From contig CAVXLF010000023.1 of assembly GCA_963762585.1 (NCBI GenBank), forward strand, positions 85,035 to 149,034: a DNA stretch of 64,000 nucleotides. Direction: 5' to 3'. The number at the start of each line of letters is the position of its first letter. Within the stretch, counting starts at the first letter, position 1. Positions 5,353-63,232 of this stretch are shown piece after piece. The stretch comes from an uncultured Verrucomicrobiae bacterium. GTDB lineage: Bacteria; Verrucomicrobiota; Verrucomicrobiia; Limisphaerales; UBA11358. A program made the position numbers and the translations under genes. Below the pieces are notes generated by a model, which had not been told where the DNA came from, searched no databases, and was given only the letters and a program-made list of their open reading frames with translations.

Positions 5353-5745
5353 TCAAAAACTTTGTGCCAATTTATCCAGCCGCGTCCGCACACTGCCGTC
5401 GTAAAGGTCGCTGCCGACCTGGATGCGCAGTCCGCCCAGCAGCGCCGGATTCTGGCGGAACGTGATGTCGGCGCCGGCGCCGTAAATTTTTTTGATTCGA
5501 TCCGCCACGCCCGTCTGCAAATCCGCGGGCAGGGAGGTGGCGCTTTCAATGCGCGCGGCATGCTGTTCCAGATCCAGTTTCACCAGCCGGTGCAGGCGCG
5601 ACAAAATTTCAACGTAACCGCGCGGTTTTTTCGCCAGCAGCAAGGTCGTGGCCTGCCGGACGCGGCTTTCATCCAGCAAACCATTCGCCTGACAACTGCG
5701 GAACAGTTGCCGGGCTTCGCGTTGCGCCAGTTTGGAGATTTTCAT
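5353..5745 (-). CDS. atpH: F1 ATP synthase delta (OSCP) subunit, unusually short
   Basis: 130 aa; position between atpF and atpA; C-terminal LLGGLRIQVGSDLYDGSVRTRLDKL matches the OSCP C-terminus. Shorter than the ~180 aa typical of delta. Confidence 0.75.
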   Translation of the reverse strand: MKISKLAQREARQLFRSCQANGLLDESRVRQATTLLLAKKPRGYVEILSRLHRLVKLDLEQHAARIESATSLPADLQTGVADRIKKIYGAGADITFRQNPALLGGLRIQVGSDLYDGSVRTRLDKLAQSF

Positions 5746-5761
5746 TCCAATTCTTTTGAGA

Positions 5762-5811
5762 TAGGGACGCCGCGCCGCGGCGTCCGGTCAGCGCCGCGCG
5801 CTGACCCTACC
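5762..5811. repeat. 50-nt double-hairpin GC-rich REP-like element (TAGGG...CCCTACC) filling the atpF-atpH intercistronic gap
   Basis: TAGGGACGCCGCGCCGCGGCGTCCGGTCAGCGCCGCGCGCTGACCCTACC: two 9-bp stems with 3-nt loops; 45/50 identical to 21897-21946. Confidence 0.85.
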
Positions 5812-5814
5812 CAT

Positions 5815-6303
5815 CTAGGCCACCAGTTGTTTTTCGGTTTCCTCCGCCAATCGCCGCTGGTCTTCCGGCGTAAGGATCTTGCCGGTGACGGTGGTGGTGG
5901 TCTGCACGACCAGCCGCCCGACTTCCCGTTTCAATTCTTCGAGCATCCGCGCGTGATCCTGCGCGGCGGCTTCGCGCGCCTTGGTGATGATTTGTTCGGC
6001 GGCGGCAATGGCCTTTTGCGTTTCGACTTCGCGCACGTGGGCGGCGGCGGCCCGCGCCTCCTCGATCATCTTGTTGGCGAGGTCGCCGGCCTGGGCCAGA
6101 ACCGCCTGGCGGTCGGTCTCGGTCTTGGCCAGTTGCGTCTTGATTTTCTCGGCGTTGGCCAGGCCATCGGCGATTTTTTCACGGCGCACCTCCAGCATGG
6201 CGAAGATCGGCCGGTAGGCAAATCTCCACAGCACGAAAAAGACGATGGAAAAACTGATCGTCTGCGCGATCAGGATCTTCCACTGGATACCTAAAGCGTC
6301 CAT
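5815..6303 (-). CDS. atpF: Fo ATP synthase subunit b
   Basis: 162 aa; N-terminal TM helix then long charged helix (AEKIKTQLAKTE...), operon position. Confidence 0.8.
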   Translation of the reverse strand: MDALGIQWKILIAQTISFSIVFFVLWRFAYRPIFAMLEVRREKIADGLANAEKIKTQLAKTETDRQAVLAQAGDLANKMIEEARAAAAHVREVETQKAIAAAEQIITKAREAAAQDHARMLEELKREVGRLVVQTTTTVTGKILTPEDQRRLAEETEKQLVA

Positions 6304-21058: not shown

Positions 21059-21079
21059 GCGGACAGCCTAAATAAAAAA

Positions 21080-21107
21080 ACCAAAATCCAAAGCCCAAAG
21101 TCCAATG
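21080..21107. repeat. Tandem heptamer array CCAAA(A/G)N x4
   Basis: CCAAAAT CCAAAGC CCAAAGT CCAATGG, between acpS stop and CNNM-1 start. Confidence 0.7.
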
Positions 21108-21142: not shown

Positions 21143-21520
21143 TCAACCTGCCAACACCGCCGTGGCCGCCGCGTAGTTTTGGGTGTGGCTCAGGCTGATG
21201 AACAATTGTTTCGCGCGGCGTGACGCGAACAATGTCTCTCCCTTGCCGTGCAGCACCACGAACGGTTCGCCGGATTCCTTGCGCCGGATTTCCATGTCCT
21301 GCCAGCCCAGGGCTGCGCCGATGCCGGTGCCGAACGCCTTGGAAATCGCCTCCTTGGCCGCGAACCGTGCCGCGATGAACGGCGCCGGGTTTTTGTGCGA
21401 TTGGCAGTAGGCAATTTCATCCGGCAGCAAAATCCGGCTCACAAACCGCTCGCCGAACTTTTCGTAGGATGCGCCGATGCGCGTCACCTCGATGATGTCT
21501 ATGCCCGTGCCCAAAATCAT
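21143..21520 (-). CDS. acpS: Holo-ACP synthase (4'-phosphopantetheinyl transferase)
   Basis: 125 aa; GTGIDIIEV..., RFAAKEAISKAFGTG, ISLSHT motifs. Confidence 0.9.
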   Translation of the reverse strand: MILGTGIDIIEVTRIGASYEKFGERFVSRILLPDEIAYCQSHKNPAPFIAARFAAKEAISKAFGTGIGAALGWQDMEIRRKESGEPFVVLHGKGETLFASRRAKQLFISLSHTQNYAAATAVLAG

Positions 21521-21524
21521 TTAT

Positions 21525-21552
21525 GATTTACGATTTACGATTTACGATTGAC
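21525..21552. repeat. Tandem heptamer array GATTTAC x4
   Basis: GATTTAC GATTTAC GATTTAC GATTGAC, 5 nt upstream of acpS ATG. Confidence 0.8.
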
Positions 21553-21592
21553 GCGCAAGCAAACTCGGCTGGGCAAAGCGGCTGCGGTAAAA

Positions 21593-27044: not shown

Positions 27045-27062
27045 AAGACACGAAAGACACGA
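27045..27062. repeat. Tandem 9-mer AAGACACGA x2
   Basis: AAGACACGAAAGACACGA in the divergent HAD-Nudix / rluE spacer. Confidence 0.55.
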
Positions 27063-27124
27063 AAAGATTTTTCTCCGTTCCCGGTCCGCAAAGGAACGTG
27101 AAAATCGGGGGCAATGGCGGTTTT

Positions 27125-27159
27125 GAAAACTTGAAACTTGAAACCTGACACTGGAAACT
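27125..27159. repeat. Tandem heptamer array (T/G)GAAACT x5
   Basis: GAAAACT TGAAACT TGAAACC TGACACT GGAAACT, ends 7 nt before the rluE-like GTG. Confidence 0.75.
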
Positions 27160-37129: not shown

Positions 37130-39793
<2,664 letters not shown>

Positions 39794-39947
39794 TTATCGC
39801 CAGACCGGATATGTTGTGGTGCGTAAAAAGCCTCCAAAACCACTTTTCCCGGGCGGAGGAAATGCTTGGAACCAAGGTGGGCGGCCACCTGGTTGGGCAG
39901 CAAAACTTCCGCTTTTCAGTCGCGATGCGGCGTCATATTCTCGGCTG

Positions 39948-42224
39948 GTGAGTCTTCACCGCGACCAACTTTTCGCGCCACTGAAACAATTCTTCGGCTT
40001 CAGTTCCTTCCGTCCGTTGCAGGAGGAAATCATTCGCGACGCGCTCGCGGGCAAGGACGTTTTCGCCGTGCTGCCCACCGGCGGCGGCAAATCGCTCTGC
40101 TTCCAGCTTCCCGCGCTCGTGCAACCCGGACTCACCGTTGTCGTCTCGCCGCTCATCGCGCTGATGAAGGACCAGGTGGACGCGCTACAGGCGGCGGGCG
40201 TGGCGGCGACATTTTTGAATTCATCGCTCGCCGCCGGCGAATCGCGTCCGCGCCTGCGCGGCTTGCACCAGGGCGAGTTCCGGTTGCTCTACGTCGCGCC
40301 GGAGCGGTTAATGTTGTCCGGTTTTCTTGACGACCTGAAGAAATGGAACGTGAACCTGTTCGCGATTGACGAGGCGCATTGCATCAGCGAGTGGGGACAC
40401 GATTTCCGCCCGGAATACCGGCAATTGCAGACGATGCGCGGAATTTTTCCAACCGTGCCGATGATGGCGCTCACGGCCACGGCCACCGAACGCGTGCGCG
40501 GCGACATTGTCCGGCAGCTGCATCTGAAGGATCCCGCGTGCTACGTCGCCAGTTTCAACCGCCCGAACCTGACTTACCGCGTCGCGGCGAAGTCAGGCGC
40601 TTATGACCAGATTCTTTCGTACGTGCAGGCGCGGCCGAACGAAAGCGGCATCATTTACGTGCAGGCGCGCAAAACGGCGGACAGCCTGGCGGCCAAACTT
40701 TCCGCCGACGGCGTGAAGGCGCTGCCGTATCACGCGGGCATGACCCCCGGTGACCGGACGAAAAGCCAGGAGGCATTTCTTCGCGACGAGGCGCGCGTGA
40801 TTTGCGCGACCATCGCCTTTGGCATGGGCATCAACAAGCCGAACGTGCGTTTCGTGATTCACTACGACCTGCCGAAGAACATCGAAGGCTATTATCAGGA
40901 AACGGGCCGCGCCGGCCGTGACGGTCTGCCCGGCGAATGTCTGCTGTTGTTCAGCCCCGGCGACCGGGTCAAGCAGATGCGGTTCATTGACGAAAAACCA
41001 AGTCCGCAGGAGCGCGAAATCGCCCGCGCCCAACTGGAACAGATGATTCACTACGCCGAGATCGCCACCTGCCGCCGTGAATTTCTGCTGGGATATTTCG
41101 GGGAGAAATTTAATCCAAATGAGGTTGTCGGACAAGGTGGGGCGCGTCACTCCGTGCGCGCCGACTTTGCAACATTGGACAACGGCGCGCACGGAGTGAC
41201 GCGCCCGACCGAACCCGTGAATTGTGCCGGCTGCGACAACTGCCTCTCGCCGCGCGCGACCTGGGACGGCACGCTGGCGGCGCAAAAATTTCTTTCGTGT
41301 GTCTATCGCATCCGTGAGAAAAGCGGTTTCGGCGTCGGCATTCAGCACGTGGTCGAGGTGCTCTGCGGTGCGGAAACGGAAAAAGTCCGCAAGTTCGGCC
41401 ACCACACACTTTCGACCTACAACATTGGCGACGGACATGCGCGCGCCGAGTGGAGCGCGATTGGACGTGAACTGGTGCGGCTCGGTTTGCTGTTTCAAAA
41501 CGCGGAGAAGTTCAACATCGTCGAGCTGACCGACGCCGGTCACACGGCGCTGAAATCGCGGCAGAAAATCACGTTGACCAAACCGGTCGCTCCGACCGAA
41601 CCGGCGAAGCATCGCGCCGGCGAAATTGCCTGTGACGAGGCGTTGTTCGAGAAATTGCGCGCGCTGCGGAAACAGCTTGCCGACGCGCGCGCCGTGCCGC
41701 CTTACATTATTTTCTCCGACGTGTCGCTGCGGCAGATGGCGCGGTTTTATCCCGCGAACGAAAAGGATTTTTCGCGCATCAGCGGCGTGGGTGAAAGGAA
41801 GCTGCGCGAATTCGGCGAAGCTTTCCTGGGTGAAATTGCGGCGCATGTGCAGACGAACCCGCGCCAGGTTTTTGCGGATGATTTCCCGGCGGATGGAATG
41901 CCGTCCGCGCCGGTGCCGCGCCGGTCACGGCTGACCGACAGCGTGCGCGAGACGCTGCATTTTTTCCAGCAAGGCCGGGCGGTTTCCGAAATTGCAAAAA
42001 TTCGCGGCTTCAAAGACAGCACGATTTACAGTCATCTTGAAGAAGCCATGCTCGCGGGCGAATCGGTTGATGTGCATTCATTGGTTTCAGCCGAAGCCAG
42101 GCGCGACATCGCCGCAGCCTTCGTCCGGCACGGTTTCGGCAACCTCACCGGCGTGGTCGAATCGCTCGGCGGGAAATACGGTTACGGCGAATGCCGCGTC
42201 GTCCGCGCCGCGTTGCAAAGGTAG
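39948..42224 (+). CDS. recQ: ATP-dependent DNA helicase RecQ (helicase-RQC-HRDC plus C-terminal HTH-like tail)
   Basis: [91 protein letters not shown], CxxCDNC, HRDC ([15 protein letters not shown]). No in-frame ATG; GTG 39948 proposed. The track ORF start 39540 overlaps gyrB. Confidence 0.92.
41136..41210. mobile_element. REPIN (inverted REP doublet, 28+19+28 nt) inserted in frame in recQ
   Basis: GGTGGGGCGCGTCACTCCGTGCGCGCCG (41136-41163) and CGGCGCGCACGGAGTGACGCGCCCGACC (41183-41210); each is 27/28 identical to the arms flanking the RAYT gene at 59.3-59.9 kb. Confidence 0.85.
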
Positions 42225-42378: not shown

Positions 42379-45234
<2,856 letters not shown>

Positions 45235-48841: not shown

Positions 48842-48935
48842 AACATCCAACATCCAACATCCAACATCCAATTCCCAATGCCGGCGGTGCAGGCATCATT
48901 GGATGTTCGGCGTTCGATGTTGGATGTTGGATGTT
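48842..48935. repeat. Inverted pair of heptamer arrays (AACATCC xN ... GGATGTT xN)
   Basis: AACATCC x4 perfect plus 2 degenerate (48842-48883); GGATGTT-type x5, 3 perfect (48901-48935); the arms are reverse complements. Confidence 0.85.
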
Positions 48936-62387: not shown

Positions 62388-62657
62388 TCAAATCCCCGTT
62401 TCGGGAAACCGTTCCCGAATGCGGCGGCGCACGTGTTCCTCGTCATCCGGGTGATAACGGCGGCGGGGGATAAAGCGGCGAACCGCGTCCAGCAATTCCA
62501 GCCAGTCTTCCAGCGGCGGTTCCTCCACCCGCTGCCACTGGTCGTAGCGCTTCTCGCGCTGGAAGAAAATCCACTCCCGCCCGACCCGTTGCGCGTAAAC
62601 CTGCAGCTTGACTCCGTCGTCGGTGACCCGCTTCCAACTGATTTCGGCTTTTGGCAT
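62388..62657 (-). CDS. Hypothetical 89-aa charged protein
   Basis: ORF with ATG start 9 nt from the heptamer array; no recognised motif. Confidence 0.35.
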   Translation of the reverse strand: MPKAEISWKRVTDDGVKLQVYAQRVGREWIFFQREKRYDQWQRVEEPPLEDWLELLDAVRRFIPRRRYHPDDEEHVRRRIRERFPETGI

Positions 62658-62665
62658 GGTTCAGG

Positions 62666-62754
62666 GTGACATGTGACGCGTGACACGTGACATGATTTCG
62701 CGTTCGCCCGTCCACCGGGTTTTCCTGTCACCCGTCACTTGTCACCCGTCACTT
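62666..62754. repeat. Inverted pair of heptamer arrays (GTGACNN x4 ... GTCACNN x4)
   Basis: GTGACAT GTGACGC GTGACAC GTGACAT (62666-62693), 33-nt spacer, GTCACCC GTCACTT GTCACCC GTCACTT (62727-62754). Confidence 0.85.
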
Positions 62755-63232
62755 TTTCAGGCAGGTCCACGCCGGCCACGGCCATGGCAGCAATGCCTTC
62801 CTCGCGGCCAATGAACCCCAGCTTCTCATTCGTCGTGGCTTTGATGCCGATTTGTTGTTCCGGGATGCCGAGCGCGGCGGCGATGCGCTTTTTCATCTCC
62901 GCAACGTGCGGATAAAGTTTCGGCTCCTGCGCGATGAGGGTCGCGTCCACGTTCACAATCCTGCCTTTGCGCCTGGCGATTTGCTTCGCGGCCTCCTCCA
63001 GGAAAATTTTGCTGGGAGCATTTTTCCAGCGCGGGTCGGTGTTCGGGAAAAAATGGCCGATGTCCGGTTCGCCGAGCGCGCCCAGCAGCGCATCGCAAAT
63101 GGCGTGCATCAGCGCGTCGGCGTCTGAATGGCCGTCGAGGCCTTTGGGGTGCGGAATCTCGACGCCGCCGAGAATGAGTTTGCGTCCCGCGACCAGCGCG
63201 TGGATGTCGTAGCCAATGCCAACGTGAACCAT
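62735..63232 (-). CDS. ispF: 2-C-methyl-D-erythritol 2,4-cyclodiphosphate synthase
   Basis: 165 aa; GIGYDIHAL, GHSDADALMHAICDALLGA, DIGHFFP, ATTNEKLGFIGR. Confidence 0.93.
   Translation of the reverse strand: MVHVGIGYDIHALVAGRKLILGGVEIPHPKGLDGHSDADALMHAICDALLGALGEPDIGHFFPNTDPRWKNAPSKIFLEEAAKQIARRKGRIVNVDATLIAQEPKLYPHVAEMKKRIAAALGIPEQQIGIKATTNEKLGFIGREEGIAAMAVAGVDLPEKVTGDK

Follow-up and report, generated by a model that had tools for sequence, protein, structure and literature searches.

The junction between ispF and the downstream gene orf89 in a Limisphaerales Verrucomicrobium carries an inverted pair of heptamer arrays. By analogy with REP/BIME/REPIN sequences, this pair is probably a single member of a palindromic repeat family that is dispersed and non-autonomous. 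Such an element has two arms, each an array of some four heptamers (GTGACRR and YYGTCAC), and between them a loop of roughly 25-35 nt. Members of the family, lying in one orientation or the other and lacking target-site duplications, occur at many unrelated sites; the ispF-orf89 junction and other junctions are also occupied by sister families built from other heptamer units. In the lineage of the window (the whole 64-kb stretch of DNA analysed here), the element took the place of a spacer of 1-30 nt at the ispF-orf89 operon junction.

The element between ispF and orf89

Read on the + strand, the junction consists of four GTGACNN heptamers, a 33-nt spacer and four GTCACNN heptamers in inverted position (Table 1), exactly the architecture reported in the first-pass annotation. 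The pattern GTGACNNGTGACNNGTGAC, corresponding to three units, matches the window four times and only here; shuffled sequences would give 0.01 matches. Repeated G3 tracts are absent from the GTGACNN/GTCACNN units.

Table 1. Coordinates of the ispF-orf89 element, its neighbours and other repeats in the window
Feature	Position	Strand	Description
ispF (2-C-methyl-D-erythritol 2,4-cyclodiphosphate synthase)	62735..63232	-	165 aa; Pfam YgbB, 1.4e-66; TIGR00151, 210 bits
ispF extension	62735..62755	-	codons K V T G D K + stop; repeat-derived
Inverted heptamer pair, ispF-orf89	62666..62754		both arms and spacer
5' arm	62727..62754	-	transcribed strand AAGTGAC GGGTGAC AAGTGAC GGGTGAC; + strand GTCACCC GTCACTT GTCACCC GTCACTT
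Spacer/loop, 33 nt	62694..62726	-	sense reading AGGAAAACCCGGTGGACGGGCGAACGCGAAATC; + strand GATTTCGCGTTCGCCCGTCCACCGGGTTTTCCT
3' arm	62666..62693	-	transcribed strand ATGTCAC GTGTCAC GCGTCAC ATGTCAC; + strand GTGACAT GTGACGC GTGACAC GTGACAT
Predicted stem-loop	62664..62747	-	helices of 8, 6 and 6 bp with 1x1 mismatches between
T5 run beyond hairpin	62753..62757	+	A5 ahead of hairpin on sense strand
orf89, conserved ORF	62388..62657	-	89 aa (MPKAEISWKRVT..); directly 3' of ispF in 69/81 Limisphaerales loci
Inverted pair TTCACGT/ACGTGAA	793..863		hairpin filling atpD stop (871) to atpC start (788), ATP synthase operon
Inverted pair AACATCC x4 + GGATGTT x5	48842..48935		between NTP_transferase gene and 1106-aa gene
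Solo array ATTTACG x5	21519..21553		no inverted partner; last unit overlaps acpS start, downstream of pdxJ
Degenerate AAARNCC array	21076..21105		between acpS and CNNM/CorC gene
AAGACACGA x2 (period 9) + GAAACTT array	27045..27159		upstream of pseudouridine synthase gene
Non-coding stretch, ~800 nt	39779..40592		upstream of gyrB
Block within it, 120 nt	40067..40186		82% identity to metagenome contig L152
Perfect array CGGCAAT x5	43740..43775		translated, within gcvP, just past first GDC-P domain

The array distal to orf89 had been said to encode the last residues of IspF together with its stop, and this is what we find: the protein ends in ..PEKVTGDK and the TGA (62735-62737) lies within the array. 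IspF of the relatives stops at ..VDLPE, so that the last six residues, KVTGDK, are repeat-derived; the comparison of C-termini that had been proposed as a check shows no conservation of this tail in distant taxa. At the canonical stop position the species of the window and the locus L001 have AAA, and translation continues to the TGA supplied by the array. Other loci exhibit other solutions: L013 retains a TAG just ahead of the array, in L018 the stop comes from the first GTGAC unit, after ..VDL, and in L002 and L003 it reads GAA TGA. In the window, TGA triplets of the 5' arm, which contains the ispF stop codon, shut all three reading frames. At the opposite end, the annotated contact between the proximal array and the start of orf89 was found again, at a distance of 8 nt rather than the 9 nt first given, with 6 nt separating the start codon from the predicted stem base. 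This tight fit against stop and start codons follows trivially from a short ancestral spacer and is not counted as evidence. The orf89 product has no Pfam or NCBIfam match.

The predicted stem-loop leaves one heptamer per arm unused in its minimum-free-energy register. The sense strand folds with -45 kcal/mol (z = -2.5) and the antisense strand with -48 kcal/mol (z = -3.4), with the same helices of 8, 6 and 6 bp on either strand. No bias in stability was seen between the strands over 20 comparisons, the sense strand being the more stable in 9; this equality means that nothing shows selection on a sense-strand RNA helix. Rfam covariance models returned zero matches at the gathering score for the window and the locus, the sole weak one being a microRNA model (E = 0.19). 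No promoter-like and no sense-strand terminator-like site was detected in the ispF-orf89 interval, and no U tract follows the stem on the sense strand, which reads ..GTCACCCTGAACCATG. The T5 run stands on the + strand, as an A5 before the hairpin on the sense strand, which makes the element look terminator-like for antisense transcripts only.

Orthologous junctions, constancy and replacement

A protein scan with IspF yielded 80 loci, whose titles almost all name Verrucomicrobiota, Limisphaerales or "subdivision 3" and whose IspF exhibits 75-90% identity to that of the window. We compared the junction in the window and these 80 loci; orf89 follows ispF in 69 of the 81. Over these 69 junctions the spacer length is bimodal, with 1-31 nt in 34 and 79-108 nt in 26; four of the others measure 39-61 nt and five exceed 108 nt. 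Since orf89 begins 1-30 nt past ispF in relatives lacking the element, the two genes form an operon. The long spacers display the same inverted-array architecture with differing heptamer units, about ten unit types being found at this junction alone: GTGAC (the window, L001, L013, L018, L036), GTGTC/GACAC (L002, L003), GTGAAAC (L005, L006), GTCCAGA (L004, L056, L061, L062, the last a perfect 4+4), TGGATGA (L012), GTTCCGA (L052), GTTCAGG (L060), GTCTGGG (L051, L038, L032) and CACGGATGNA, with a period of 10-11 nt (L021, L026, L027, L057, L064). Elements of this last type represent a second palindromic class, whose arms are tandem CACGGATGNA-like units; it shares junctions with the heptamer elements, and some copies contain nested inserts of 100-150 nt.

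Within the species of the window the element is remarkably constant in form. Ten contigs encoding an identical orf89 protein, with 92-99% identity to the window, all have 4+4 units and an element of equal length, with 0-4 single-base differences. These differences show no compensatory pattern and make the stem slightly less stable. In the same contigs, third codon positions have diverged by 7.7-10.9% and the element by 2.3-3.5% (Fisher p of 0.01-0.05 in five contigs, 0.22 in one other); the element is the slower by a factor of about 3-4. A phase-variable simple sequence repeat, which the tandem units might call to mind, was rejected, the copy number being the same (4+4) among the same-species contigs.

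The next junction upstream, between a response regulator and a histidine kinase gene (RR-HK) and just past the end of the window, is another hotspot. There, two contigs of the window's species cluster exhibit non-homologous elements between near-identical flanks: an AACATC-type element in L081 (1100-1215) and a GATGGCA-type element in L082 (1116-1215). Across Limisphaerales loci the junction is either empty or occupied by one of at least four element families. One of them, the GAAGGCA family, has five units in each of L002, L003, L004, L010 and L082. The CACGGATGNA-like class is also seen at this junction (L034, L035, L044, L046, L071, L077). The fixed length and copy number, the slow divergence and the difference between L081 and L082 together indicate that the elements are stable and constrained within a lineage, yet replaceable as whole cassettes. 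Such a replacement at a junction could be homologous recombination of alleles instead of transposition.

The short spacers of the element-free relatives, together with the lack of promoter- or terminator-like sites between the genes, lead us to infer that the element is co-transcribed with ispF and orf89, the transcript folding into an interrupted stem of about 20 bp. As ispF stops within the 5' arm and orf89 starts 6 nt past the stem base, a ribosome terminating at the TGA should open the stem and would expose the orf89 start, and translational coupling of the two genes would then survive the insertion. The hairpin may also buffer mRNA decay, as REP elements do, and the T5 tail could stop antisense transcripts.

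Dispersed families and their common anatomy

Eight period-7 arrays were counted in the window, against 0.5 expected, and no other period is enriched. In the entire Limisphaerales DNA (the window and the 80 loci, 1.24 Mb) there are 108 such arrays, against 13-25 for periods 5, 8, 10 and 11; a reverse-complement partner lies within 130 nt of 55 of the 108, against 2-3 in two controls. The inverted pairs of this set have stems of 20-40 nt and loops of 13-45 nt, and occur with a density of about 0.35 per 10 kb. Three of them are in the window (Table 1). The AACATCC type belongs to a family exhibiting a common inner stem, CCAATG/CATTGG, and a similar loop in the window, L007 (two copies), L008, L024, L038 and L072.

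Several further observations were made in the window. The loop of the atpD-atpC hairpin contains GGGCGAAG, similar to GGGCGAACG of the ispF element. The solo ATTTACG array reads CGTAAAT on the gene strand and so presents TAA in all three frames. The CGGCAAT array within gcvP encodes 12 residues. The non-coding stretch upstream of gyrB has no Rfam or tRNA match.

We scanned metagenome contigs for three GTGACNN units, a gap of 15-45 nt and three GTCACNN units. Pairs of this type were found in at least 120 contigs, with a GC content of 0.37 to 0.72 among the matches listed; among these same matches, only the one on L190 is at an ispF site. The listed contigs with GTGAC pairs (440 kb) contain 285 period-7 arrays, against 8-22 for periods 5, 8, 10 and 11. 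Dozens more unrelated unit types occur in metagenome contigs, and dozens coexist within one genome. The GTGAC loop of the window aligns in the same orientation with that of L001 and only as its reverse complement with those of L013, L018 and L149b, each of these alignments outscoring all 500 shuffles. Some of the metagenome contigs are Limisphaerales-like, among them L149, with 76% identity to L069 across 1.3 kb. On L126, members of a single family whose loops are related, and may lie either way round, stand at different sites with unrelated flanks (5495 and 6081; 4740 and 8585). The same contig exhibits, at 5495-6189, an ispF bordered on both sides by GAGGTCG-type heptamer hairpins whose loops are about 85% identical. 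The IspF of L126 is merely 43% identical to that of the window, so the phenomenon reaches beyond the Limisphaerales. The viral contigs searched contain two GTGAC-type pairs only and thereby provide no link to phages.

These data bear on the view of the first-pass annotation that a mechanism, rather than a single sequence family, generates the structures. Its premise stands, since unrelated units do recur, in the three pairs of the window, in about ten types at the ispF-orf89 junction and in dozens of types in metagenomes. A purely local generation without families is not supported, the unit types being dispersed with related loops in either orientation. In its most explicit form such a local origin would have 7-nt slippage expand a small palindrome and template switching (quasipalindrome correction) keep the arms alike, with no mobility. 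Heptamer arrays that are solo or intragenic, such as CGGCAAT x5 in gcvP, would fit this scheme, as would perfect arrays such as the 4+4 copies of L062, and polymerase slippage has been invoked for the surplus of heptamer simple repeats among bacteria (PMC4692102, PMC4679880). The scheme would also fit the unit variants common to both arms of one element whatever the pairing register: the complementarity of the variable unit positions is 1.12 of 2 within an element against 0.77 between elements, and it shows no dependence on register, shifted or permuted registers giving 1.05-1.14. Nevertheless we regard a local origin as unlikely. The same arms with a related loop are found at unrelated sites in both orientations, and within one species cluster different contigs can have non-homologous elements at one junction. 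Copy number, instead of being slippage-prone, holds steady in the species and over deep divergence, and the number of units per arm peaks sharply at four in the listed GTGAC set instead of following the broad distribution expected of slippage.

The anatomy of the elements was analysed on the 121 GTGAC elements among the matches listed. The mode is four units per arm (78 and 72 of the 121 for the two arms); the arms are of equal length in 66 and differ by one unit in 42, and the median loop is 24 nt. Identical flanking words of 3-5 nt, as expected of target-site duplications, were seen in 0-1 of the 121. Across families a common constraint does exist, comprising the 7-nt period, arms of about four units and a purine bias in the 5' arm. 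The purine polarity was observed in 53 of 68 elements of the non-GTGAC families (p = 4e-6) and in 27 of 36 merged unit families (our own count from the family list). No heptamer motif common to the families was found beyond base composition, the information content being 3.73 against 3.53 +/- 0.17 in controls. An apparent enrichment of stop codons in the 5' arm was discarded for the same reason (18 families observed, 16.7 expected from base composition). A T-rich end of the loop is a weak trend and not universal.

A binding function has to be weighed against these features. The arrays might be double-stranded operators or iterons, or single-stranded RNA or DNA sites for a protein with a 7-nt footprint (cold-shock domain), regulating orf89 or the operon. 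Short tandem motifs in a fixed number of about four, their conservation within the species and the purine polarity of the 5' arm across families agree with this, and CspB is known to bind heptamer repeats with one protein per heptamer (reviewed in PMC4679880). Yet the dozens of unrelated units in one genome, lacking a common motif beyond base composition, the avoidance of divergent, promoter-containing regions in the listed GTGAC set and the many relatives devoid of an element at the ispF-orf89 junction render this reading quite unlikely.

With respect to neighbouring genes, the listed GTGAC elements lie mostly downstream of genes, 57 being in co-directional, 28 in convergent and five in divergent contexts. 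Their flanks are symmetrically A-rich at the 5' and T-rich at the 3' side, in 33-35% of ends against a background of 3.5%; the enrichment is weaker in the Limisphaerales set (21% against 4-7%). Together with the T5 run past the ispF hairpin on the + strand, the downstream location and these flanks in both sets could suggest that the chief role of the element between ispF and orf89 is transcription termination, attenuation or RNA processing. We consider this very improbable: the sense strand has no U tract after the ispF hairpin, the T tracts of the listed GTGAC set exhibit no preference for the sense side (33% against 35%), the element-free relatives have an operon organization, and no Rfam family was matched. 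Two other candidates were dropped, a CRISPR since there are only two arms of 7-nt units, and an integron attC site since ispF is a core gene and a cassette context is absent.

Known repeats and the possible route of spread

The closest parallel to a dispersed palindromic element of this kind is found in the REP/BIME/REPIN sequences (Bertels & Rainey 2011, PMC3116915; Di Nocera et al. 2013, PMC3733652). Like these, the heptamer elements are short non-coding palindromic repeats, present in many copies, with several families per genome and persistence in lineages. REP inverted dimers fold into a single hairpin of about 80-110 nt, as the ispF element is predicted to do, and they too lie mostly between co-directional or convergent genes without target-site duplication, the distribution seen here. 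In contrast, a REP unit is an imperfect palindrome of 20-40 bp with an unpaired GTAG (or CGTC) end tag, neither of which is present here; the arms of our elements are direct tandem arrays of heptamers and not self-palindromic units. A RAYT transposase was not found here (approximate IS200 probe, about 2 Mb), and the host is a Limisphaerales Verrucomicrobium.

Heptamer arrays as such have been described elsewhere. The GGGAATC arrays of Xanthomonas are likewise intergenic and occur in two opposite orientations close together, 70-75 of them being convergent inverted pairs (Rehm et al. 2015, PMC4692102). Their type (single array or inverted pair) is usually kept at orthologous sites between species (PMC4692102). 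However, they consist of one G-rich unit with G-quadruplex potential and vary in length between close species, whereas here there are many units without G runs and copy number is stable. The cyanobacterial STRR heptanucleotide repeats and the TAACTGA repeats of Beggiatoaceae and cyanobacteria (PMC4679880) are also intergenic tandem 7-nt units, with several types per genome and the same excess of period 7, and are often located right at start codons, as is the ATTTACG array at acpS in the window. They are mostly single direct arrays, unlike the elements described here; in the BOGUAY "Maribeggiatoa" genome 1 of 170 TAACTGA repeat sets is inverted (PMC4679880). MITEs resemble the elements in being small and non-autonomous with terminal inverted repeats, and differ from them in that target-site duplications are practically absent from the listed GTGAC elements (0-1 of 121) and the analysis turned up no autonomous relative. 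Eukaryotic foldback elements have inverted repeats that are themselves made of short tandem repeats.

An REP-like element of this kind may spread by a hairpin-based route leaving no target-site duplication, such as an HUH/Y1-type enzyme, recombination or template switching, its arms being shaped by unit-level slippage and conversion. A search for a transposase or other mobilising gene found none, the IS200/Y1 probe (an approximate sequence) giving no significant match in about 2 Mb. Near-identical copies within one genome, as proof of recent transposition, were not seen, the genome of the window being covered by 64 kb. More tentatively, the heptamer-array hairpins might constitute an unrecognised superfamily of mobile elements, free of target-site duplication and abundant in soil Verrucomicrobia and other uncultured bacteria. 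A dedicated protein, perhaps a single-strand HUH-type transposase or one that binds with a 7-nt footprint, would in that case account for the 7-nt period, the four or so units and the purine-rich 5' arm, and the elements would repeatedly invade operon junctions, displace each other there and sometimes donate stop codons and C-terminal tails to essential genes. We hold this to be a possibility worth stating, of rather modest probability.

A search of the literature available to us returned no description of heptamer-array hairpins in Verrucomicrobia. They probably represent a widespread, previously undescribed class of REP-like palindromic repeats at operon junctions of soil Verrucomicrobia. 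A surplus of bacterial heptamer repeats has been on record since 1990 (STRR) and 2007 (long simple sequence repeats), with no accepted function or origin. As this clade has many orthologous junctions that are empty, filled, or filled by another family, the gain, loss, replacement and constraint of such elements become directly measurable. By altering the 3' ends of core genes, ispF among them, and by lying within tightly coupled operons (atpD-atpC, pdxJ-acpS and the response-regulator/kinase pair), the elements matter for gene annotation, for operon expression and for the search for the mobilising enzyme.
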